A DNA stretch of 10,942 nucleotides from Candidatus Iainarchaeum sp. GTDB lineage: Archaea; Iainarchaeota; Iainarchaeia; Iainarchaeales; DTGL01. The notes below the pieces were generated by a model. That model did not search any database. It saw only the letters and a program-made list of their open reading frames with translations, and was not told the origin of the DNA. Of this stretch, positions 580 to 10,041 are shown one piece after another. The translations under genes and the position numbers were made by a program. The DNA is taken from contig JAVYME010000036.1 of NCBI GenBank assembly GCA_038736825.1, positions 1-10,942 of the forward strand. The letters run 5' to 3'. The number at the start of each line of letters is the position of its first letter. The stretch's first letter is position 1.

Positions 580-2109
580 ATGAAATCCAAAAAAGCAATA
601 ATTGTTGGAGCGGGCCCAGGCGGTTTGGCTTGCGCAATGATTTTAGCCCACAGGGGTTTTTCAGTGACAGTTTACGAGAAAGAGGCAAGAGTGGGTGGAA
701 GGAATGCAGTGCTAAAAATTGGTCCTTACACTTTTGACACTGGCCCGACATTTTTAATGATGAAATTTATAATGGATGAAATGTTTGAAGAGGCTGGAAA
801 AGACTCTTCAAACTACCTCAAGGTGAAAGAGATAGAGCCATTGTATCACCTTGACTATGGAGACATGGAATTGTTTCCTTCAAAAGACATGGAAAAAAAC
901 ATTTTGGAGGCAAAAAAGTTTTTTCCTGGCAGTGAAAAAGGCGTTAAAGAATTCTATGAAAAGGAAAAAAAGCGCTATGAATTGTTGTTTCCATGCCTTC
1001 AAAAGGATTACTCGCATTTTTCTGCTTTTTTTTCAAAGCGCTTCATAAAGGCAATTCCAATTTTAGGCATAAACGAGTCCTTGTTTGATAATTTAAACCA
1101 TTATTTTAAGGATTTAAGGCAAAAAATGGCTTTTGCGTTTCAATCCAAATACCTTGGAATGTCGCCATGGGAGTGCCCTGCAGGTTTTACCATGATTCCT
1201 TACGTGGAAAGAAGATATGGCATATTCCATGTAATGGGCGGCTTGAACGCAATATCTGAGGCAATGGCGAGAGCAGCAAAAGAGGAGGGCGCAAAAATAA
1301 AACTGAAAACCCCAGTAAAGCAAATAATCTTTGAGGGAAGAAAAGCAGTCGGGGTTTTGCTTGAATCAGGCAAAAAGGATTTTGCAGACGAAATAATAAT
1401 AAACGCAGACTTTGGTTATGCTGCCACAAACCTTTTCCCGAAAGGGTTTTTGAAAAAATATTCTCCAGAAAAAATTGCAAAAAAGAAATACTCTTGCTCC
1501 ACTTTCATGATATACTTGGGAGTGGACAAAAAATATTCCTTGCCACACCACAACATTTACTTTTCAAAAGACTATGAAGGCAACGTGAAAGACATATTTG
1601 AAACAAAAAAACTCTCTGAAGAGCCGTCCTTTTACCTTCAAAACCCTTCAGCAATAGATGAATCGCTTGCACCAAAAAACCATTCTGCAATCTATGTGCT
1701 TGTTCCGGTTCCAAACAACACTTCCAAAATAAACTGGGAAAAAGAAAAGAAGGCTTTCAGGAACAAGGTACTAAATTTAGTGGCAAAAAGAACAAAAATA
1801 AAAGACATAGAAAAGCACATAAAGGCTGAACATATTATCACTCCACTTGACTGGGAGAAAAAATACAATGTTTATTATGGTGCCACATTCAATTTAGCCC
1901 ACAATCTTTCCCAAATGCTTTATTTCCGTCCAAGAAACAAGTTTGAGGAAGCTGAAAACTGTTGGCTTGTCGGAGGCGGCACTCATCCTGGAAGCGGTTT
2001 GCCGACAATATACGAGTCTGCAAGAATCACAGCAAACCTTTTATGCAAAAAGCATGGAATCAACTTCAAAGAACCTTCAAGCCTTTCAGAAAAAAGAACA
2101 GGCGGCTGA
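580..2109 (+). CDS. crtI: CrtI-family phytoene desaturase / carotenoid (FAD-dependent) oxidoreductase
   Basis: ATG 580 gives MKSKKAIIVGAGPGGLACAMILAHRGFSVTVYEKEARVGGRN (Rossmann GxGxxG at nt 604-624, followed by E-x5-GGR). It continues with GPYTFDTGPTFLMM and the C-terminal NCWLVGGGTHPGSGLPTIYESARITANLL. These are the three hallmark blocks of CrtI-type enzymes. The ORF-track TTG at 565 adds 5 residues before a canonical N-terminus, so ATG 580 is preferred. Stop is TGA 2107-2109. Subfamily (CrtI, CrtD or CrtN-like) cannot be decided by eye. Confidence 0.85.
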   Translation: MKSKKAIIVGAGPGGLACAMILAHRGFSVTVYEKEARVGGRNAVLKIGPYTFDTGPTFLMMKFIMDEMFEEAGKDSSNYLKVKEIEPLYHLDYGDMELFPSKDMEKNILEAKKFFPGSEKGVKEFYEKEKKRYELLFPCLQKDYSHFSAFFSKRFIKAIPILGINESLFDNLNHYFKDLRQKMAFAFQSKYLGMSPWECPAGFTMIPYVERRYGIFHVMGGLNAISEAMARAAKEEGAKIKLKTPVKQIIFEGRKAVGVLLESGKKDFADEIIINADFGYAATNLFPKGFLKKYSPEKIAKKKYSCSTFMIYLGVDKKYSLPHHNIYFSKDYEGNVKDIFETKKLSEEPSFYLQNPSAIDESLAPKNHSAIYVLVPVPNNTSKINWEKEKKAFRNKVLNLVAKRTKIKDIEKHIKAEHIITPLDWEKKYNVYYGATFNLAHNLSQMLYFRPRNKFEEAENCWLVGGGTHPGSGLPTIYESARITANLLCKKHGINFKEPSSLSEKRTGG

Positions 2110-2114
2110 ACTTT

Positions 2115-3025
2115 TTGCCAAAAAACACGGTTTTGCTCTTGCAATTAATTAAGCTTGGGCGCTTTCAATTTGTTTTTGGGGGCATCCTGTTATACCTCTT
2201 GGGTTGCCTTTTGGCATTGCCTGCAGGCTATGCTTTCAATCCCTTTTTATGGTTTTCTGGCTATCTAGTTTTGTTTCCAGCGCACCTTTCAGTTTCCTAC
2301 AGCAATGACTTTTTTGATTCAATTGGAGACAAGGCTGCCAAGCGAACCATTTTCTCGGGCGGAAGCGGTGTTCTCTTAGAACACCCTGAACTAAGAGAAA
2401 CAGCGAAAAGAATTGCTTTGGCATTAATAGCATTGTCTTTTCTTGCAGGAATTGCTTTCATTTTAGCATTTGATTTCAATCCATTTCTTTTGGTTTTTGT
2501 TTTAATTGGAAATTTTTGTGGCTGGTTTTATAGTGCCCCCCATTGCGCTTTTCTGAAAAAATTTATGGCAACACTGTTTTTGCCCTTACTGCTTGCGTTT
2601 TGCTTCCAAGCTTTGGCAATTTTATTGCTTCCGGTACAATCACGCCAGAAATGCTTGCATTTTCAATTCCACTGCTGTTTTATGGTTACGCTTTCACAAT
2701 TGCAGTTCAAATACCCGATATTATTGTGGACAGAAAAAACAATAAAAAAAATTTTGCACTGGTTTTAGGCGAACAAAAATCCTTTTTTGCAATTTTAGTT
2801 CTTTCAATTTCAGCCTCTCTTTCCTTTATTGCAATTCCCTTCCTTTTCAAAAACATCCCTGACTTCAATTTTTTCTTTTTATTTTCATGGATTCCGCTTG
2901 CAGTTTCTTCCTTCAATCTTTTGGCAAAAAACAAGGCCTCCCTTAAAACAATGGTTTTTGTTTCTTCAATAATGGCTTTTGCAGCAATTTGCAATGCATT
3001 CCTGTTCTGGAAATTTTTTTGGTAA
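2115..3025 (+). pseudogene. UbiA-family aromatic/isoprenoid prenyltransferase, interrupted by a 1-nt frameshift in a C6 run (true pseudogene, homopolymer assembly error, or recoding site)
   Basis: The N-terminal half is in the frame of ORF 1962-2768. It carries TM helices and the first Asp-rich motif NDFFDSIGD (nt 2304-2330). The C-terminal half is in the frame of ORF 2543-3025, with the second Asp-rich motif DIIVD (2717-2731) followed by RKNNKKNFALVLG. The two frames can only be joined at 2534-2542. Adding one C restores ...WFYSAPPLRFS..., the canonical UbiA-fold junction. The repaired length of about 300 aa is typical for the family. The start is uncertain: there is no in-frame ATG after the crtI stop, and TTG 2115 (5 nt after the stop) or TTG 2133/2139 are the candidates. 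Confidence 0.75.
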
Positions 3026-3057: not shown

Positions 3058-3915
3058 TTATTCTACAATAATCTCTAATTCAAAGGATTGCGCGCTTTTT
3101 GATGCAAAGCCCACGTCAACGTATTGACTGCCGAGTTCTTGCTTCCACTTTTCAGCATATTCAATTGGTGGATCCACAATAATAATTTTGACAGAAAAGT
3201 TCTTTTTTGGAGCATTCTTTTTTGCAAAAACCTCCACAAAAACAGCCCTAGCCCAAGCTTTATCGAATTTTGGAAAGCTTGGGCCTAACAAAAAAACAGG
3301 CTCGCTTATGTTCACTTCAAGGAATTGCTTTGCATTTTCATCAAGAAATTCTGGTTTCAACATCATTCCCTGAAATGATCTTACCCCATAACCTGAATGC
3401 AGAAAAAACACAGTCTTTTTTTTTCCTTCCTGTTGCACAAAAACAGTTTCTTTTATGGGAAAATAGCCATAGCCATAAGCAGCCCAATGCGTTGTAGACG
3501 GCTTTAACCAGTATTCAAGCCCGTTTTGCTTGAAAGAAGGATAGAATTCTGGTTGCAAATAATAATCTTTTGAAAAAAAATCATAATTCGTGTAAAGGTT
3601 TTTGTGCATTAATGAAACAATCCTGTTAAAATCAGGGGGTGGAACAGGCAATTCTTCAAATACTGCTAGCGGAATGCCGTAAGCCTTTCTTTCTTCCATA
3701 AGCCCTTCCGAATTTTGGCTGCTTTCTGGAATTATTGAAGAACTAAAACCAGGAAGCAGGTTGTTGTTGTCGCTTTCAATGCTGGTTTTTTTGAATGAAT
3801 TCAGGTTAAAAACAAAAAAGAAAACAGCCAAAACCGCAACAATAACAATTAAAATCCCAGCAATGGCTTTTTTTTCTGGCTTTTTCTTTTCCATAAAAGC
3901 AAATTTTCCAGCCAA
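3058..3915 (-). CDS. Hypothetical N-terminally membrane-anchored protein with an aromatic-rich extracytoplasmic domain; distal gene of the giant-protein operon
   Basis: TTG 3915 sits 4 nt downstream of GAGGTGA (3920-3926). An alternative ATG lies at 3894. The product has a basic N-terminus (KKKPEKK), one TM helix (AIAGILIVIVAVLAVFFFVF), and then about 235 aa rich in Tyr/Phe/Trp (HWAAYGYGYFP, FFLHSGYGVRSFQGM) with no motif I recognise. Stop is TAA 3058-3060. Confidence 0.75.
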   Translation of the reverse strand: MAGKFAFMEKKKPEKKAIAGILIVIVAVLAVFFFVFNLNSFKKTSIESDNNNLLPGFSSSIIPESSQNSEGLMEERKAYGIPLAVFEELPVPPPDFNRIVSLMHKNLYTNYDFFSKDYYLQPEFYPSFKQNGLEYWLKPSTTHWAAYGYGYFPIKETVFVQQEGKKKTVFFLHSGYGVRSFQGMMLKPEFLDENAKQFLEVNISEPVFLLGPSFPKFDKAWARAVFVEVFAKKNAPKKNFSVKIIIVDPPIEYAEKWKQELGSQYVDVGFASKSAQSFELEIIVE

Positions 3916-3919
3916 AAAA

Positions 3920-3926
3920 TCACCTC
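3920..3926 (-). promoter_or_regulatory. Shine-Dalgarno site GAGGTGA overlapping the stop codon of the giant gene
   Basis: The minus strand reads AGC-TGA-GGTGA-TTTT-TTG. The GA of the TGA stop (3925-3927) plus GGTGA form GAGGTGA, which is complementary to the 16S rRNA 3' end. It is followed by a 4-nt spacer and TTG 3915. This is a classic translational-coupling arrangement. Confidence 0.55.
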
Positions 3927-6900
3927 AGCTTGGACCACTAGTGCTTGTAACATTGCGATCTGTGCTTCCAACACTGGCTCCAATAAAATCTGCAAAAATA
4001 AAAATGTTCAAATCCTTTGAACCAGTGCTATAAACAGCAGTTCCAATGTTTTTTGGAGTAGCATCTATTTCAACACAGTCCACGTCAGTGTTTCCACTGC
4101 ACGAAGAAGCCCAGCCATTGTATGTTTTTGAAACCTTTAACTTGAGAGTGCTTGGAAGGGCTTCATTCAAGTGAAGCGAAAAATTAATATCGTTCCAGCC
4201 AGTGCTTTGATTGTCATAAACAAAAAAAGGAATGCTTGAAGTCTGGCCTTCTGGGTCCACTTTGGTTTGATCTGAAAGCCCTGACAAATCTGTTGGCTCA
4301 AAATAGCCTTTTTCGCAGGCACCACTGCCAGCACTAATTCTGCCTTTTCCTTCAGTGCAACCTGAAGAGGGCAGTGAAAGCGTGAAAGTATAATCCGCTG
4401 GCCCACTTATTGTTATATTTATGTCTGCATTGTTTGCACTAGAATAGTTCACGTCAGCACTCCAATTAGAATCAATTTTTGCTCTAATTGTATAAGTGCC
4501 AGCGGCAGTGCCAGTGACTTGGAAAACAAAATAGTTTGTGTCAGAAACATCGAGCAAATTGTCTCTCCTGAAATAAGTGCCATTTGAAACATAAAGCGGG
4601 CTTGAAGAAGAAGTGTTCATGTCAAACCATTGAGAGCAGCCATTTGAAGGATTAATGCAATACATTAGTACGACATTTGTGTCACCACAGGAATAGTTTT
4701 TGCAAGAGCCAAGCACGCTTACATCAAAAGCAGTGTTTATTGTTTTCTGTGAATTGTTTGCAGGCGAAACAATTCCAGTGTTCAAGTCACCTGCAAGCCT
4801 AATGCTTGCAGGAGCAATGAGGTTGCTGTCCCTTGTTGCTGCAGTATTCCCGTTATAGGAAAGTGTTCCCACAGCAGTGGTTGGGCTCACACCGTAAAAC
4901 GCGACCTCTGCGACTATTTTGTCTCCCCTGGTTAATGTAACAGCACTACCAGCAGCAGTCAAAAGCTTGTATGTGGGGCTTGTACCAATTTCAGTTGCCA
5001 AGGTAGTTGGAACCACAATATTCTGCTGCTTTGAGTCATTTGCATCCCAGACATAAATCGCATACCTTCCCTGCAAGTCGTCGTTAGTTGCACTTTCGTG
5101 AAGATAAGCAGTCATCCTCCAGTTCGCAGCGGAAATAGTCTGCGGCACAAGTGGAGGAGAAGTGAAAGAAGCTAGGCTGATGAAAACATTACTTCCACTA
5201 CTAAGTGATGGTGTTGAAATAGTAGTGGTCGAACTACCAGCTGTGTCAATCATTCCAAGGCCAGTCCAAGTGCTTCCGGCAAGAAAGCTGTCTCCAGAGG
5301 CAGAAGCATTAGGCATTGGCTCACTTGGAGCCCAATCAGCGGCTTGCCTAAAAAAGAAAATTGTTGTCGGGTTTGCGTCCACTGCAATCATCCAAGCCCT
5401 TGTTTCTGCAAAAAAGAAGTTTTTTCCATTTATCTCCAATGGCCCGATATTGTAAAGCCATGGCTTTTTGTCAGGAACTGAATAATAATAGTAAATTTCT
5501 GCAATTCCTTCTTCATTGAATTTAACATTTTTCCATTCAATTATTTTCTCGCTTTCGGTTTCAGAAACAGAAAAGCCTTCGCCTTCAATTTCGAATTCTT
5601 TTGGCACAAACTCTCTAATGTCAGCTGTTTTCTTTCCATCAAATGTTTTCACCTCTATTGCTACTTTGTTGGGTTGAACTGCTGGGTCGATTTTTGTGGC
5701 GGTTCGCCTTAAAACTTCAAAGGGAACAAATTTTTGGACTTCAAAGGTTGTCTTAATTTCAACATCAATATTGGGAGCAATGGCTTTCGCTAGCACTCCA
5801 TGGGTTCCCTCTTCAAAAACTTGCAGTTCGCCAACATAAATTCCACTTGAAGTTGTTTCCTTTATGGTGCCATTTATTGTGGAAATTGTTTGAGTTTGCC
5901 CGCTTGGAGTCAAAACTGCAAGGTTGACTTCTGCCCCCTGCACTCCATAGCTTTCCCTGTCGAGCACGACAACATGGAATTCAACTGTTTCACCCGGCTT
6001 ATATGTGCTTTTGACTGTATTTACTGCAATCAAGCCCCATTCAAAGGAATCCGATTGCTCTATAAACTCATTTCCGTCAAAAGCTTTAATTCTCAAAGTA
6101 TAAGTGCCAGCCTTAAAGCTTCGCAATACTGGCACGGTTATAAGGAAAACCCCTTCCTCTTTTCTTTTTATTTTTTCTGTGCTAATCGGTTTTTCTGTTC
6201 CATCCGGCATTACAAGAAATGCTTCTATTTCACTGTCAACTTTTTCGTTCAATTCGCTTGTTATTTGGAGTTCAAAGACAGGCATTTCGTTTGCCAAAAA
6301 TTTGGAGCGAGCTTTGGAGAGTGCAAAAAACTTTTTTCCAGATTTTTTTATTTTTAGCTCTGGCTCGTCCTTGTTAAAATCCTCTATATTGAAATCTGGT
6401 GGCAGTTCTGGCAAAACAATGCGCTTGGCAAAAGCAAAGGCTCTTGCACCGTTTTCCAAGGAAAGCAATGCAGTGGCGCCACTTATTTCAGAGGCTTTTT
6501 CAAAAAGCGAATTGCATTTTTTTCCAGCAAAATCCCAGTTATTGCATAAAAAAACAGTGTCAGCTTCACCAGGCACTGCGAACGAAATAAGCCCTTGTTC
6601 AAAAGAAAAACCGGGCTTTTCTGCCACAATGTTTTCAAAATAAAAGTTTTTGTCAGGACTGGGCACAGAATTTTCATCTATTTCTTCATCTATTTCAAAC
6701 AATGTTGTGTTTGAGTCAATTTTTGCTCCGTCAATTTCAATTTTTGAAAAAACAGAATCAAAAAAAGAAATTTTCAAGGCATAAGAGCCAAGCGCTATTT
6801 CAATCAATTCAGTGCCAGAGGCAACAGGGTTCTCGTTGGAATCATAAAATGTTGCTGCTGAAAAAAAATTGGATGGCTTTACAAAAACAGTTTTTTGCAT

Positions 6901-7503
6901 TGGTTCAATTGGCTTTGCAGTGCCAGGCGCCAAAGATGGAGTTGGGAAAGGGGTTTCCCCTGAATGGCTTGGGCTTATTGCTGGCGTTTCAAGGAGTGTA
7001 TCCTGTGCTTGAGTTGGAATTGCAGTCTGAATTGGGGTTTCCGGAAGAGTTGTGTCAGGCTGAAGAGGGCTTGCAGTTGGGATTTCCTCGGGCTTTTCTT
7101 CCAAGGGATTGATTATTTCTATATTGGCTTTCTTGGATTGGCAGTTTTCTTCGATGCAGGCAGTAATTGAAAAGGAATGCACTCCATTTTCAAATTGTAA
7201 AGAATTAAAATCTGATGAAAAATTGTTTTCAATTGAAAGACTGCCAAGCCTTTGCCCGTCCACTTCAAACCAAGCGCTTGTAATTTGTTCCCTTGGCTCT
7301 ATAACTGCAATAACTATTGCACTGCCTTTCACTTTTTGTGATTCCATTGGCGAAACTATTGAAACAAATAATGTTTCTTGTTGAGTTTTTGCGGTTTCTT
7401 TTAAGATTTCATCTTCTTGAAAGAACGCGGGGGAAAGAAAAAAAGTTGTTGGAATAATAAAAACCAAGCAAAGCCAGAAAAAAAAGCCACTTTCTTTCAG
7501 CAT
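3925..7503 (-). CDS. Giant (~1190 aa) secreted surface protein: mosaic of Ig-like/beta-sandwich domains with a Pro/Thr linker and a Cys- and N-glycosylation-sequon-rich C-terminal third; no C-terminal membrane anchor
   Basis: The ORF is uninterrupted from 3925 to 7515. ATG 7503 (MLKESGFFFWLCLVFIIPTTFFLSPAFF...) is preferred over the TTGs at 7515/7512. After the hydrophobic N-terminal signal comes an Ig-like domain (VSIVSP...GSAIVIAVIEP...AWFEVDGQRLG...NGVHSFSITA). A Pro/Thr/Glu linker with ETP repeats follows (nt ~6898-7107). Beta-sandwich modules follow, each with the pattern x-P-[DS]-G-x...G-x-Y (e.g. YKPGETVEFHVVVLD...VLTPSGQ...SGIYVGEL, nt ~5746-6033). The C-terminal ~290 aa (3928-4803) contain many Cys and, by my manual count, at least 12 N-x-S/T sequons in the last ~460 aa. 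The protein ends ...DRNVTSTSGPS with no TM segment. Stop is TGA 3925-3927. Confidence 0.85.
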   Translation of the reverse strand: MLKESGFFFWLCLVFIIPTTFFLSPAFFQEDEILKETAKTQQETLFVSIVSPMESQKVKGSAIVIAVIEPREQITSAWFEVDGQRLGSLSIENNFSSDFNSLQFENGVHSFSITACIEENCQSKKANIEIINPLEEKPEEIPTASPLQPDTTLPETPIQTAIPTQAQDTLLETPAISPSHSGETPFPTPSLAPGTAKPIEPMQKTVFVKPSNFFSAATFYDSNENPVASGTELIEIALGSYALKISFFDSVFSKIEIDGAKIDSNTTLFEIDEEIDENSVPSPDKNFYFENIVAEKPGFSFEQGLISFAVPGEADTVFLCNNWDFAGKKCNSLFEKASEISGATALLSLENGARAFAFAKRIVLPELPPDFNIEDFNKDEPELKIKKSGKKFFALSKARSKFLANEMPVFELQITSELNEKVDSEIEAFLVMPDGTEKPISTEKIKRKEEGVFLITVPVLRSFKAGTYTLRIKAFDGNEFIEQSDSFEWGLIAVNTVKSTYKPGETVEFHVVVLDRESYGVQGAEVNLAVLTPSGQTQTISTINGTIKETTSSGIYVGELQVFEEGTHGVLAKAIAPNIDVEIKTTFEVQKFVPFEVLRRTATKIDPAVQPNKVAIEVKTFDGKKTADIREFVPKEFEIEGEGFSVSETESEKIIEWKNVKFNEEGIAEIYYYYSVPDKKPWLYNIGPLEINGKNFFFAETRAWMIAVDANPTTIFFFRQAADWAPSEPMPNASASGDSFLAGSTWTGLGMIDTAGSSTTTISTPSLSSGSNVFISLASFTSPPLVPQTISAANWRMTAYLHESATNDDLQGRYAIYVWDANDSKQQNIVVPTTLATEIGTSPTYKLLTAAGSAVTLTRGDKIVAEVAFYGVSPTTAVGTLSYNGNTAATRDSNLIAPASIRLAGDLNTGIVSPANNSQKTINTAFDVSVLGSCKNYSCGDTNVVLMYCINPSNGCSQWFDMNTSSSSPLYVSNGTYFRRDNLLDVSDTNYFVFQVTGTAAGTYTIRAKIDSNWSADVNYSSANNADINITISGPADYTFTLSLPSSGCTEGKGRISAGSGACEKGYFEPTDLSGLSDQTKVDPEGQTSSIPFFVYDNQSTGWNDINFSLHLNEALPSTLKLKVSKTYNGWASSCSGNTDVDCVEIDATPKNIGTAVYSTGSKDLNIFIFADFIGASVGSTDRNVTSTSGPS

Positions 7504-7528
7504 AAGAACCAACAACCACTGGTTGAAA

Positions 7529-7536
7529 AAAATAAA
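7529..7536 (-). promoter_or_regulatory. TATA-like element (TTTATTTT on the minus strand) upstream of the giant gene
   Basis: Its centre is about 29-30 nt upstream of ATG 7503 on the minus strand, and no convincing Shine-Dalgarno lies between them. This is compatible with a leaderless or very short-leader transcript. Confidence 0.3.
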
Positions 7537-7545
7537 TGCGAAAAG

Positions 7546-7553
7546 TTTATAAA
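7546..7553. promoter_or_regulatory. Palindromic TATA-like box TTTATAAA in the divergent intergenic region
   Basis: The 8-mer is a perfect palindrome and so could serve either divergent transcription unit. It lies ~46 nt from ATG 7503 (minus strand) and ~44 nt from ATG 7594 or ~65 nt from GTG 7615 (plus strand). Confidence 0.3.
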
Positions 7554-7564
7554 TAACAAGAGCA

Positions 7565-7572
7565 TTATATTT
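7565..7572 (+). promoter_or_regulatory. TATA-like element TTATATTT upstream of the small secreted ORF
   Basis: Its centre is about 25-26 nt upstream of ATG 7594, which is leaderless-type geometry. Confidence 0.3.
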
Positions 7573-7593
7573 TGTGCCTTTCTTTAAATTTGA

Positions 7594-7902
7594 ATGGGAA
7601 AAAGGGTGATATACGTGAATTTTAAGTTTTGGGTAATAGTTTTAATTTTAATAAATTTTTGCATAGTGGTGTTTGCTGACACTCAAACCACCACTTTGAG
7701 TTGGGTTATTCCCGCAAACGTTGTGCACACTCTCTCTTATGGTGGCAATTGTTCAAATTCCGCAATGTATTTTATTGAAACAAATTCTCCAGAGGATCCA
7801 GACATTGACGGAAATGGCGCAAAAATAATTCCATATGATGCAGCAAGCAGTGGCATTTCAATAGACAGGCCACATTTTAGGCTAATCATAACAGTAAACT
7901 AA
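7594..7902 (+). CDS. Small secreted protein (95-102 aa precursor) with signal peptide; mature part resembles the start of the giant protein's C-terminal domain
   Basis: ATG 7594 gives MGKRVIYVNFKFWVIVLILINFCIVVFA/DTQ. The alternative GTG 7615 is preceded by GGGTGAT (7604-7610) plus a 4-nt spacer and gives MNFKFWVIVLILINFCIVVFA/DTQ, a textbook Sec signal. The mature ~73 aa are Thr/Ser/Asn/Asp-rich. Stop is TAA 7900-7902. There is no alternative long ORF here on either strand. Confidence 0.6.
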   Translation: MGKRVIYVNFKFWVIVLILINFCIVVFADTQTTTLSWVIPANVVHTLSYGGNCSNSAMYFIETNSPEDPDIDGNGAKIIPYDAASSGISIDRPHFRLIITVN

Positions 7903-7930
7903 ACTGCCTGTGAGCCCTATCTAAACCAAA

Positions 7931-7944
7931 TTTTTAGACTTTTT
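7931..7944 (+). terminator. Two oligo-T tracts (T5 at 7931-7935 and 7940-7944) downstream of the small ORF
   Basis: Archaeal RNA polymerase terminates at oligo-T tracts. These are the first T5 runs after the stop at 7902, and they precede the next TATA-like box (7957-7964). Confidence 0.3.
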
Positions 7945-7956
7945 CTTAAAAAGATT

Positions 7957-7964
7957 TTTAAATA
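7957..7964 (+). promoter_or_regulatory. TATA-like element TTTAAATA upstream of the 685-aa membrane protein gene
   Basis: Its centre is about 23-24 nt upstream of GTG 7984. Only a weak AGG lies between them. This is again leaderless-type geometry. Confidence 0.35.
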
Positions 7965-7983
7965 ATGGAAGCATAATAGGTTT

Positions 7984-10041
7984 GTGCTAGCAAAAAAACT
8001 GCCTTTGGTTTTGCTCTTTCTGTTGTTTTTCCATTTACTGGTTTTTGCGGATTTTAAGGGAACAGACTTAAAATGGCTTTCTGCAAGCGAAAACCTTTAT
8101 GAAATAAATATAACCGCAGATCATACGCCTGAATTGAACCAAGTTGTTGAAATAAAAGTGTCATTTTCAAAGCAAGGGGTTTTGCTTTCCGGCGACATAA
8201 ATGGCACAATCACGAAACCGGATGCTTCAACTGAGAGTTTCAATTTTGTACAAACTGGGGACGGCAATCACCAGTATAATTTTTTGTTTGAACAAAATGG
8301 GGCTTACACTCTTGACATAACCGCAGTTGATGAAAATGGCTTTCTTGCAAGGAAAAGAGATTATTTTTATGTTGGAGCATACAATATCAACAGGTCTATA
8401 ATAAGCCAGCAAGATTTTCTTCCAAACTCTATTGTCACCATTATGGTTTATGCAAGCGTTAATCCACCGCTGGTGCGTGCTAGGGGAACAATTTCAATAA
8501 ATTATCCCAATGGAAACGCTCTTGTGTCAAATGCAAATCTCACTGAATCTACAACGCCAGGATATTACTCTTACAGTTTCACAGCGCCAAACATTCTTGG
8601 AACATATACTTACAACATAACAATGGTTTCTGGAGCGAATAGTGTTTCAAAAACAGGCAGTATAAACATCAATGTGTTGGGAGCCATTTGCGGCAATGGT
8701 TTTTGTGAAACAAATGAAACCTGCACAAACTGTGAAAGCGATTGCGGTGCGTGTACAATGCCAACTCCAATACAACAACCTGGCGGGGGCAGTGGAGGCG
8801 GAACAGGCGGTGGAGGTAGTTTTGCAAAACCCACTCCAACGCCAGAAACCTTTGAAAAACCAAAGATTAGAGCAGAAGGCATTTCTGTAAAGCCATTTGA
8901 ACTTGGAAGCCCTGCAATAATTAGCGGCAAAATCATAAATTCTTCAGACAAAAAAGCCACAGTACTAGTTTCAGTCATAATTCAATACGAAAACACACTG
9001 GAATATGTGGATGAAAGGGTTTACCTTGACATATTGCCTTCTTCCTCTCAAGACTTTTCAATGCTTTTGCCTTGGACTCCAAAAATTGCTGGCTCGCATG
9101 TAATGACTTTAACATTGTATTCAATTGACAAAACCGTTAAATTTGACGAACAAGTAAAAGTTTTTGAATTGCCAGGCGAAATGCGTTACGATCTAGAAAT
9201 CAAGTGCATTACTCAAAACACGGCAGCAGGACTGCCAGCCTATTTTGAAATATTTGCCTACAATTTAGGACAATACTATTCCGACATAGGCCTTTACTGG
9301 TTTATAGAGGACAGTGAAGGAAAAGTCCAGTTTTCTTCTTCAACGCCGTTTGCACTCAAGCCTGACGAAAAGGCAACCAAAGCGTTTATTGCCACAATTC
9401 CGCAAAACGCAAAATCAGGAATTTACACTGCAAGGGCAAAACTTTTACACCTTGAAAACGGCAATCAACCGGAAAGAGAAGCGATTTGCACTTTTAATGT
9501 TTTAAGCCAGCCAAACTATTATGCTTTAGAGGTTTTTGACTTAAACAAAAGGCTTGAAGAAGCGCAAAGCGCGGTTGAAGAACTAAAATTAAAAGGAAAA
9601 AATGTTTTAAGCATTGAATTGAAAATCTCTCAAGCAAGGCTGGCTCTTTTTGAAATAGAAACATTGATTGGCAACCGCAATTTTGAAGGAATTGAACTCA
9701 AATTAATAGATTTGTTCAAAAAAATAAACGATATTGAAAAAGAAATAGAACAAATCAAAAAAGAACCAGTTTTTGATTTCACAATTGTTTTGTTTTTGAT
9801 TTATGGCTTGATACTTTTGCTTTTAGGGTTCTTTTTTTATAGGCATATGCGACTGGCTGCTGAAAGAGAGGAAAAGTTTTCAAAAATTTTGGAAGCAAAC
9901 ATTCGCTCTGCAAGAAAGGCAAAAAGCCTTATTCCAATCGGCAAATCCTTATGGCATGAACCACAACACAAGCGGTTAATGCGAAAAATTCACGAAACCA
10001 GTCATGCCCATAAGCACGCTTTAAGCCATCATAAAAGTTAA
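7984..10041 (+). CDS. Type-I membrane surface protein: signal peptide, Ig-like domains, Cys-rich module, Gly/Pro linker, two CARDB-like domains, coiled-coil stalk, C-terminal TM helix, His-rich cytoplasmic tail
   Basis: GTG 7984 gives MLAKKLPLVLLFLLFFHLLVFA/DFKG, a signal peptide. Two beta-sandwich modules follow, with the P-[DN]-G...G-x-Y pattern (TKPDAST...NGAYTLDITAVD; NYPNGNA...PGYYSYSFTAPNILGTYTYNITM). Next come CGNGFCETNETCTNCESDCGAC (8689-8754), the linker PTPIQQPGGGSGGGTGGGGSFAKPTPTPE (8755-8865), and two CARDB-like repeats (~8872-9168 and ~9181-9504). A heptad-rich segment, LNKRLEEAQSAVEELKLKGK...KKINDIEKEIEQIKKE, spans ~9520-9765. The TM helix FDFTIVLFLIYGLILLLLGFFFY spans 9772-9840, followed by a basic tail ending HETSHAHKHALSHHKS. 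Stop is TAA 10039-10041. Confidence 0.85.
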   Translation: MLAKKLPLVLLFLLFFHLLVFADFKGTDLKWLSASENLYEINITADHTPELNQVVEIKVSFSKQGVLLSGDINGTITKPDASTESFNFVQTGDGNHQYNFLFEQNGAYTLDITAVDENGFLARKRDYFYVGAYNINRSIISQQDFLPNSIVTIMVYASVNPPLVRARGTISINYPNGNALVSNANLTESTTPGYYSYSFTAPNILGTYTYNITMVSGANSVSKTGSININVLGAICGNGFCETNETCTNCESDCGACTMPTPIQQPGGGSGGGTGGGGSFAKPTPTPETFEKPKIRAEGISVKPFELGSPAIISGKIINSSDKKATVLVSVIIQYENTLEYVDERVYLDILPSSSQDFSMLLPWTPKIAGSHVMTLTLYSIDKTVKFDEQVKVFELPGEMRYDLEIKCITQNTAAGLPAYFEIFAYNLGQYYSDIGLYWFIEDSEGKVQFSSSTPFALKPDEKATKAFIATIPQNAKSGIYTARAKLLHLENGNQPEREAICTFNVLSQPNYYALEVFDLNKRLEEAQSAVEELKLKGKNVLSIELKISQARLALFEIETLIGNRNFEGIELKLIDLFKKINDIEKEIEQIKKEPVFDFTIVLFLIYGLILLLLGFFFYRHMRLAAEREEKFSKILEANIRSARKAKSLIPIGKSLWHEPQHKRLMRKIHETSHAHKHALSHHKS

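Follow-up and report, generated by a model that had tools for sequence, protein, structure and literature searches.

We analysed a 10,942-bp stretch of DNA (hereafter the window), the whole of one contig of a Candidatus Diapherotrites (Iainarchaeota) metagenome-assembled genome (MAG), which carries a cluster of genes for secreted and membrane proteins. Four open reading frames (ORFs) are found where an earlier note on this DNA had placed them: 3058-3915 and 3925-7515 on the minus strand, which we name B1 and A, and 7594-7902 and 7984-10041 on the plus strand, an ORF of 102 residues and gene D, respectively. Conserved synteny of the homologues of all four shows that these are true genes rather than chance ORFs, and they belong to a real, conserved and unnamed cell-envelope cluster of Iainarchaeota. 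The note had described a four-gene locus; the window instead carries what a deletion has left of a cluster of five to six genes, because the 102-residue ORF is a fusion of the remains of two further genes, C and B2. Only A-B1 and D are intact here, C-B2 is destroyed and the small gene E is absent. The DPANN origin that the note had guessed is confirmed by the 100% identity of protein A to a hypothetical protein encoded in a Candidatus Diapherotrites archaeon MAG, and by the loci found with a profile of the B family, which are nearly all from Iainarchaeota where they are named.

That profile was scanned against one genome per GTDB species and returned 33 loci in ∼29 GTDB representative MAGs, the named ones being nearly all Iainarchaeum, with the exception of one labelled Aenigmatarchaeota and one Thaumarchaeota. 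Hidden Markov models (HMMs) of the five families A to E were scanned against all ORFs of these loci. Among the non-redundant loci, 29 have a B gene after A, mostly with gaps of -4 to +33 nucleotides (nt), 19 have a second B at short distance after C, and 21 contain D (616-782 residues), often followed by E (9 loci), confirming that the genes are co-conserved in relatives. Relative to one another, the modules run colinearly in some genomes, divergently in a second group that includes the window, and convergently in yet others, and because their relative orientation varies in this way it is the modules, not a single operon, that form the units. Comparison of the loci thus indicates an ancestral cluster of five or six genes in three modules (A-B1; C-B2; D with or without E). 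Most additional copies of A, or enlarged copies of C, are also adjoined by a B gene. The B family is large, comprising 414 clusters at 50% identity in an exhaustive HMMER search of 1.84 billion representatives, with the clusters among the matches listed all being small proteins; 26 clusters are close to B1. Cluster look-ups for ten distant B relatives yielded neither names nor taxonomy. Three other contigs carry homologues of A, and a search with full-length A recovered at least four proteins among the 8000 candidates sharing most words.

Several loci (given L numbers here) depart from this layout. Two or three A-B modules, whose A proteins have 1650-2716 residues, occur in some MAGs (L033 and L037 on the same 220-kb contig; L018 with L029; L024 with L030), and in three loci the order is reversed, B preceding A (L030 7270-15226, L032 2319-7761 and L034 9842-15293). 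In L003 (4096-4873) B1 is frameshifted into two ORFs of ∼105 and 160 residues, a second damaged B in a MAG contig. On a 527-kb groundwater contig (L001 15243-18775) two more secreted proteins adjoin the cluster, an 837-residue FG-GAP-repeat protein and a 295-residue protein with repeated Cys-rich modules, and this region may be a more extensive island of surface proteins. Among B homologues with usable flanks, the most distant, in the MAG labelled Aenigmatarchaeota (L038 1723-6858), precedes a secreted protein of 1434 residues that the family-A HMM does not match, and outside Iainarchaeota B proteins may be paired with cargo of another kind.

The 102-residue ORF (7594-7902, plus strand) consists of the signal peptide and first ∼80 residues of C, the 5' third of that gene, joined to the last ∼22 codons of B2. 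The ORF corresponds to the N-terminal 80-90 residues of family C. In BLASTP its residues 12-102 match C and residues 77-102 match the C terminus of B2 in L002 with 77% identity. At the DNA level, in comparison with the nearest complete relative (L013), positions 7667-7784 correspond to the 5' part of C (70% identity) and positions 7836-7901 to the 3' end of B2 (91% identity), two targets separated by ∼1.4 kb in that locus. The two parts meet within a microhomology (7831-7854, encoding PYDAASSG), the equivalent residues being PYNAASGG in C and YFDAASSG in B2, and the fusion is in frame. As read from these alignments, an in-frame deletion of ∼1.4 kb joined the start of C to the end of B2, and the ORF is most likely a non-functional remnant, neither a small secreted protein with a gene of its own nor the assembly subunit that had been supposed. 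A B gene follows small C in every other locus for which downstream sequence is available. The deletion may be fixed, a minority variant or an assembly collapse, of which a real deletion is the more likely, we infer, because the microhomology is too short and imperfect to be bridged easily by a k-mer assembler. The surviving 3' end of B2 (window 7836-7901) is 91% identical in nucleotides to L013 4619-4684 and 85% identical to L002 1891-1964, above the 66-83% of the other alignable parts of the loci, and might act as a regulatory element in front of D.

Gene A (3925-7515, minus strand) encodes a giant secreted surface protein of 1196 residues from the TTG at 7515, or 1192 from the likelier ATG at 7503 (NCBI model P0001). 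Hydropathy places its only hydrophobic segment at the N terminus, consistent with a signal sequence and no C-terminal anchor as the note had described; tested for a PGF-CTERM signal, the protein ends in ...GSTDRNVTSTSGPS with no C-terminal hydrophobic segment, and its sole PGF tripeptide is at residue 301. Other features attributed to A were not recovered. It is not dense in sequons, with 15 against 12.3 expected from composition (1.25 per 100 residues, compared with 0.97 in a cytoplasmic enzyme on the same contig), nor rich in Cys (13, or 1.1%), and it is not without a nameable family, since it exceeds the Pfam MG2 cut-off (39.2 bits against 32.8).

A structure model of A, built from a 14-sequence alignment, divides the protein into distinct regions. 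An N-terminal β-sandwich (residues 50-135; 7111-7368), with the Cys pair C120 and C125, is kept across much of family A and is followed by a disordered spacer rich in Pro, Thr and Glu (residues 139-204; 6904-7101), where the predicted local distance difference test score (pLDDT) is ∼40. Residues 209-712 (5380-6891) are modelled as a chain of β-sandwiches with pLDDT mostly 75-93, and contain the Pfam MG2 domain (residues 502-573; 5797-6012; E 9e-10, above the gathering score). The model therefore presents residues 50-712 as a chain of macroglobulin (MG)-type β-sandwiches. Residues 714-1034 (4414-5376) are conserved only among closer relatives and appear β-rich at low confidence. A C-terminal domain (CTD, residues ∼1035-1196; 3928-4413), delimited by a phmmer domain map and the alignment, completes the protein.

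Nearly all of the top 50 Foldseek matches of A are complement C3/C5, A2M, CD109, TEP1 or ECAM, at TM-scores of ∼0.1, which indicates that the bead type is common to A and the MG proteins and the architecture is not. Likewise, the family-A profile run against PDB chains matches the MG1-MG2 region of C3 and A2M (E 2e-5). The family is modular, with lengths of 900-2775 residues, and of 35 members scanned eight contain MG2, four FG-GAP, two Big_7 and one a β-helix. For the modelled part (residues 50-712) there is no match to an enzyme and no specific match to a tail fibre, either of which the note had named as a refutation of its reading. Against viral models (BFVD) A gives mostly generic immunoglobulin (Ig) arrays at TM-scores of ∼0.07-0.1, together with a few equally low-scoring tail proteins, and a PHROG search produced no match to A; a viral origin was rejected. 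A short β-sandwich signature had been thought to link A to D, but the strict regular expression has a single occurrence in A and none in D, and is a generic Ig/MG-type pattern; both proteins do give MG2-type matches, those of D being weak.

Three parts of A are conserved family-wide, residues ∼50-150, residues ∼205-365 and the CTD (residues ∼1035-1193), of which the CTD is the best conserved. It is ∼160 residues long, has four conserved Cys and the motifs DNQS, GW..C and DF...DRN, and is found in every family-A protein with a recovered C terminus, the middle of the protein being swapped. The CTD matches nothing in PDB or Pfam, and a search with its profile recovered 10 short fragments only. 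It resembles C, a secreted protein of ∼215 residues: in hhalign the two profiles align with E values of 4.5e-5 to 4e-4 and a probability of 35-44%, and the longer alignments are collinear over ∼155 columns with several conserved Cys in register. As the relation appears in profile-profile comparison and in no other search, homology between C and the A-CTD is suggestive and not established. Sequence and profile searches of C against PDB gave nothing significant, including among TasA-family and pilin entries.

Longer C proteins (414-890 residues) are found at L029 15599-18010, L030 5331-7226, L032 1010-2335, L033 750-1994, L034 8334-9611, L035 2-2671 and L036 3257-4513. Most are enlarged by ∼200 residues inserted at C-profile position ∼82-85; a few are extended at the N terminus. 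The window deletion begins in the very loop that receives these insertions (after ...ILPY), and this loop evidently accommodates insertions as well as rearrangements.

B1 (3058-3915, minus strand) is a type-II membrane protein of 285 residues. Hydropathy and an AlphaFold2 model agree with the single-pass topology claimed for it: a short Lys-rich N terminus is followed by one transmembrane helix (residues 16-40; 3796-3870), a disordered linker (residues 43-67), a helical subdomain (residues 68-137; 3505-3714) and a PapD/MSP-like β-sandwich (residues 149-284; 3064-3471), in an N-in/C-out orientation. The model, from a 22-sequence alignment, has a mean pLDDT of 86, exceeding 90 across the ectodomain. 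In Foldseek searches of PDB the sandwich matches MSP, ASH/PapD-like proteins, chaperone-usher chaperones and cohesins, as well as sandwich domains of some glycosidases and subtilases, at E 4e-6 to 2e-4 and with target-normalised TM-scores up to 0.57. The chaperones CsuC, FaeE and Caf1M are matched at E 4e-5 to 1e-4 with target-normalised TM-scores of ∼0.36, and MSP, ASH, cohesin and glycosidase sandwich domains match as well or better. The helical subdomain has no Foldseek match in PDB, and B1 matches no catalytic fold there. On the basis of the model, the sandwich is best described as a protein-binding Ig-type fold. In sequence and profile searches B has no Pfam, NCBIfam, PHROG or PDB match, and its invariant residues lie in the loops QPEFYP, HSGYGVR and LLGPxFPKF. 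B proteins that follow A and those that follow C are clear paralogues (E ∼1e-35) and form distinct orthogroups, the nearest neighbour having the same type of partner for 27 of 28 B proteins that follow A and for 18 of 19 that follow C.

D (7984-10041, plus strand; 685 residues) was delimited by family alignment, hydropathy and profile matches. A signal sequence (residues 1-22) is followed by two Ig-like domains (residues ∼23-235), a Cys cluster present in some family members (CGNGFCETNETCTNCESDCGAC, residues 236-257; 8689-8754), a Gly/Pro-rich linker and two further Ig-like domains (residues ∼301-505), both pairs placed by the family alignment. A coiled coil (residues ∼510-590; 9511-9753), with coiled-coil-type matches at residues ∼495-580, then leads to a transmembrane helix (residues ∼593-622; 9760-9849) and a basic, His-rich cytoplasmic tail of 63 residues (9850-10038). 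Hydropathy and the domain and coiled-coil matches therefore support the layout that the note had compared with SlaB, namely signal sequence, β-sandwich domains, coiled coil and C-terminal transmembrane helix. The domain matches are weak (filamin, MG2, PKD, CARDB and YtkA, with the filamin repeat at E 6e-4), those of the coiled coil are to keratin, GCN4 and trimeric-autotransporter sequences, and beyond these generic matches D has no sequence similarity to solved proteins. E, of ∼100 residues, consists of an N-terminal transmembrane helix and a charged helical tail. Neither in the window nor in L013 (2523-4589) does E follow D, which in these two loci is longer (685-688 residues) and has the His-rich tail. 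Fusion of E into D is unsupported, as the HMM of E does not match the long D tail of the window or L013.

The mature N termini of C carry the motif T-[ML]-T-W-V directly after the signal peptide, and many D proteins have a similar S/T-x-T-W-V/Y (for example L004 10866-11546 and 12905-14857, and the window ORFs starting at 7594 and 7984), with BLASTP linking residues 1-38 of D in L005 to residues 1-39 of C in L007. In the window D the motif has diverged to DLKWL. This N-terminal motif of C and D could be a shared recognition or donor strand.

The gene pairs and predicted folds can be brought together in a model of cargo and anchor, in which B proteins tether surface proteins bearing the CTD and D is a SlaB-like stalk; we give this model, tentatively, a probability of about 0.4. 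Each module would consist of a secreted cargo with the ∼160-residue CTD (the C terminus of A and probably all of C) and a dedicated B protein. The cargo would be exported by Sec and then docked non-covalently on the B protein encoded immediately downstream, the CTD being the proposed docking domain for B1. Held by its N-terminal transmembrane anchor and a short flexible linker, B would present its helical subdomain and PapD/MSP-type sandwich, a fold that typically binds partners via β-strand augmentation. A would project its Pro/Thr-rich spacer and chain of MG-type beads outwards as a displayed adhesin or spacer, with FG-GAP, β-helix or LamG-type inserts taking the place of the beads in other family-A members. 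D would form a separate SlaB-like stalk, carrying its Ig-like domains on the ∼80-residue coiled coil above the transmembrane helix, with E as a probable partner in many relatives. Such an assembly would more likely be an accessory surface or attachment apparatus beside a canonical DPANN-type S-layer than the lattice itself. Three observations suggest a one-to-one partnership of B with its cargo: the CTD stands at every recovered C terminus of A, C resembles a free-standing CTD, and each cargo gene carries its own B from one of two co-evolving orthogroups.

A number of points weigh against this model. The data show the gene content and synteny, the topologies, the folds of B and of A (residues 50-712), the two B orthogroups and the deletion; CTD-B docking, as well as display or adhesion and the role of D, are what we infer, and the evidence for docking consists of the pairing of the genes, their co-duplication and their conservation. 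Even at E values up to 10, the HMM of C finds no match in A. Residues 714-1196 of A, the CTD included, are modelled at low confidence (pLDDT below 50 to ∼55), so an enzymatic or lattice-forming fold is possible there, and the conserved loops of B could mark a catalytic or processing site instead of a docking surface. The loss of C-B2 from the window implies that this module is dispensable, or that the window represents a defective or minority variant. Finally, a predicted Iainarchaeota S-layer protein of 1039 residues (UniProt A0A2G9N319, prediction type '6+2') is listed in the preprint 10.1101/2024.05.28.596244, where neighbouring DPANN entries have 745-1069 residues and are mostly of the same prediction type. 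This protein is within the size range of family A and might be a family-A protein; membership would favour an S-layer.

The earlier note had suggested a two-component S-layer comparable to that of SlaA and SlaB in Sulfolobales. In this case A, alone or together with the Ig-like domains of D, would form a paracrystalline canopy, which D, as a SlaB-like stalk, and B1 would hold above the membrane. Part of the proposal stands. As with SlaA and SlaB, the cluster encodes a large, secreted, anchorless protein, all-β where modelled, together with membrane-anchored partners, one of which copies the SlaB layout from signal sequence to C-terminal transmembrane helix; the genes are co-conserved across the phylum, chains of Ig-like domains are a common S-layer building block, and archaea are known to anchor proteins via a co-expressed accessory protein. 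The fixed canopy-stalk gene pair of SlaA and SlaB is, however, not what we find, as the constant partner with which A travels and duplicates is B1 (29 loci), not D. B1 is opposite in topology to SlaB, being anchored at its N terminus; it lacks a coiled coil and has a PapD/MSP-like sandwich. D belongs to the other module, C-B2-D(-E), the orientation of which varies relative to A and in which D has its own TATA-like box in the window. In addition, the length of A varies three-fold, its domain content varies and several A-B modules are present in some genomes. Because A is modular, variable in length and sometimes multi-copy, adhesin-like display fits it better than a lattice protein.

Searches for known S-layer proteins point in the same direction. 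A has an ordinary sequon density, no S-layer protein is among its top 50 Foldseek matches, and neither phmmer nor the family profile relates A to solved S-layer proteins, the PDB matches being to MG domains of complement and A2M only. Sequence similarity to SlaA or SlaB is absent, and the solved SlaA structures were presumably among the PDB chains searched. We take the Methanosarcina tile-protein structure to be in the PDB copy searched as well, and in a test for MSTP-like proteins no S-layer family of Pfam or NCBIfam was matched at E up to 0.1, nor was there a PDB profile match. An MSTP-like sandwich fold, said to be orthologous, is reported for several DPANN phyla and 'the remaining phyla' (10.1101/2024.05.28.596244). 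With these MSTP-like proteins of DPANN archaea (NEQ300, the Micrarchaeum S-layer protein and the predicted A0A2G9N319; ∼750-1070 residues) the cluster has in common its phylum-level setting and large secreted β-sandwich proteins, but A matches no S-layer family and is defined by a CTD that is always accompanied by a B gene. Iainarchaeota moreover already have another predicted S-layer protein on record, with a size usual for DPANN archaea. The two-component S-layer is thus unlikely, and we do not place it lower because A0A2G9N319 could belong to family A. A further alternative, weaker than the fibre considered next, would be a second, phylum-specific type of S-layer, its canopy docked via a protein-protein CTD-B anchor.

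Less probable still is a chaperone-assisted surface fibre, in which C would polymerise, A would be the tip adhesin, the B proteins would be tethered PapD-like chaperones capping the subunits and D would form the base. By analogy, A would combine an adhesin region with a C-like domain, as FimH combines lectin and pilin domains, in an independently evolved counterpart of chaperone-usher pili where the donor strand would be provided by the T-[ML]-T-W-V sequence of C and its counterpart in many D proteins, and the B proteins would cap their subunits until assembly. The B sandwich indeed matches CsuC, FaeE and Caf1M among PapD-like folds, C is similar to the A-CTD, every subunit gene comes with a B of its own, and mature C starts with a conserved strand-like sequence that many D proteins approximate (S/T-x-T-W). 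The fold match is however generic, with target-normalised TM-scores of 0.35-0.57 and equal or better matches to MSP, ASH and cohesin. The s-type Ig sandwich of B (residues 149-284) matches folds of the PapD-like/MSP/ASH superfamily, whose known members use them for edge-strand or groove binding, whereas chaperone-usher chaperones have two sandwiches, not one with a matchless helical subdomain and an N-terminal membrane anchor, and have no sequence similarity to B. The gene lists of the loci include no usher-like gene, and the host is an archaeon without an outer membrane. C has no sequence relation to solved proteins, TasA-family and pilin entries included, and the CTD is modelled at pLDDT below 50.

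A membrane-anchored protease trap or defence protein resembling alpha-2-macroglobulin is very improbable: A has an MG2 match above the Pfam threshold, a chain of MG-type sandwiches (residues ∼400-712) and complement, A2M, TEP and ECAM as its top Foldseek and PDB-profile matches, but TM-scores of ∼0.1 show that bead type and not architecture is in common, MG2 is present in just eight of the 35 family-A members scanned, and A contains no thioester motif (CxEQ), helical thioester domain, CUB domain or recognisable bait region, its model being essentially helix-free (residues 714-1196 at low confidence), which essentially excludes a trap of the thioester type. The arCOG01314 neighbourhood, a putative archaeal secretion or envelope system of a MoxR-type AAA+ ATPase, a vWA protein and arCOG01314 (Makarova et al. 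2015, PMC5898192), is likewise a cluster of secreted and membrane proteins with Ig-like domains annotated as S-layer-like; membership of this 'novel secretion system' was rejected, with no MoxR ATPase, vWA or arCOG01314-like gene in the gene lists of the loci examined.

To our knowledge almost nothing is known of the cell envelope of Iainarchaeota (Diapherotrites), and we know of no cultured representative. The surface proteins of DPANN archaea are the presumed interface with hosts or partners. We found no published description of the cluster, which is restricted to the phylum, while its theme, a surface protein with a dedicated membrane partner, is known in kind. The analysis defines two families for which there is no Pfam or NCBIfam model and no PHROG or PDB relative, B with its 414 clusters and the CTD/C domain, as well as a simple, testable rule, that each secreted protein bearing a CTD is accompanied by a B gene of its own. 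Should docking occur as modelled, the pair would represent a new archaeal tether, distinct from a transmembrane helix of the protein's own, a PGF-CTERM lipid anchor or a SlaB-type stalk, and could serve as a marker for displayed adhesins in Iainarchaeota genomes. The 102-residue ORF also calls for caution in annotation, being a deletion scar and not a gene family.

The two arms of the window are arranged head to head around an AT-rich spacer, as the note had reported, with 78 nt between them from the TTG at 7515 or 90 nt from the ATG at 7503. A TATA-like box for the plus arm lies at 7547-7556 (TTTATAAATA, plus strand) and one for the minus arm at 7525-7536 (TTTATTTTTTTC, minus strand). The position of the latter favours the ATG as the start of A and hence the 90-nt spacer (7504-7593), which would be a divergent promoter region for both arms, judging from what is known of archaeal promoters. 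A further TATA-like box (TTTTTAAATA, 7955-7964, plus strand), 20-29 nt upstream of the GTG start of D, suggests that D has a promoter of its own. Between the stop of A and the start of B1 are 9 nt (3916-3924, minus strand) containing GGTGA; the note had described this pair as translationally coupled.

Housekeeping genes lie on both flanks of the cluster, namely an MgtE fragment, a phytoene-desaturase-type oxidoreductase, a frameshifted UbiA prenyltransferase and Sua5/TsaC. Exact look-ups of D and of the phytoene-desaturase-type protein gave no match, probably owing to differences in the recorded start codons. The gene for the UbiA-family prenyltransferase (1962-3025) is broken into two overlapping ORFs, of which 1962-2768 corresponds to UbiA profile positions 6-134 and 2543-3025 to positions 114-249. 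The frameshift, near 2535-2541, is at or close to a run of six C (agtgCCCCCCattg), and reflects either a pseudogene or a homopolymer sequencing error. This gene comes directly after that of the phytoene-desaturase type (565-2109), a pairing that recalls the carotenoid desaturase and lycopene elongase of haloarchaea.

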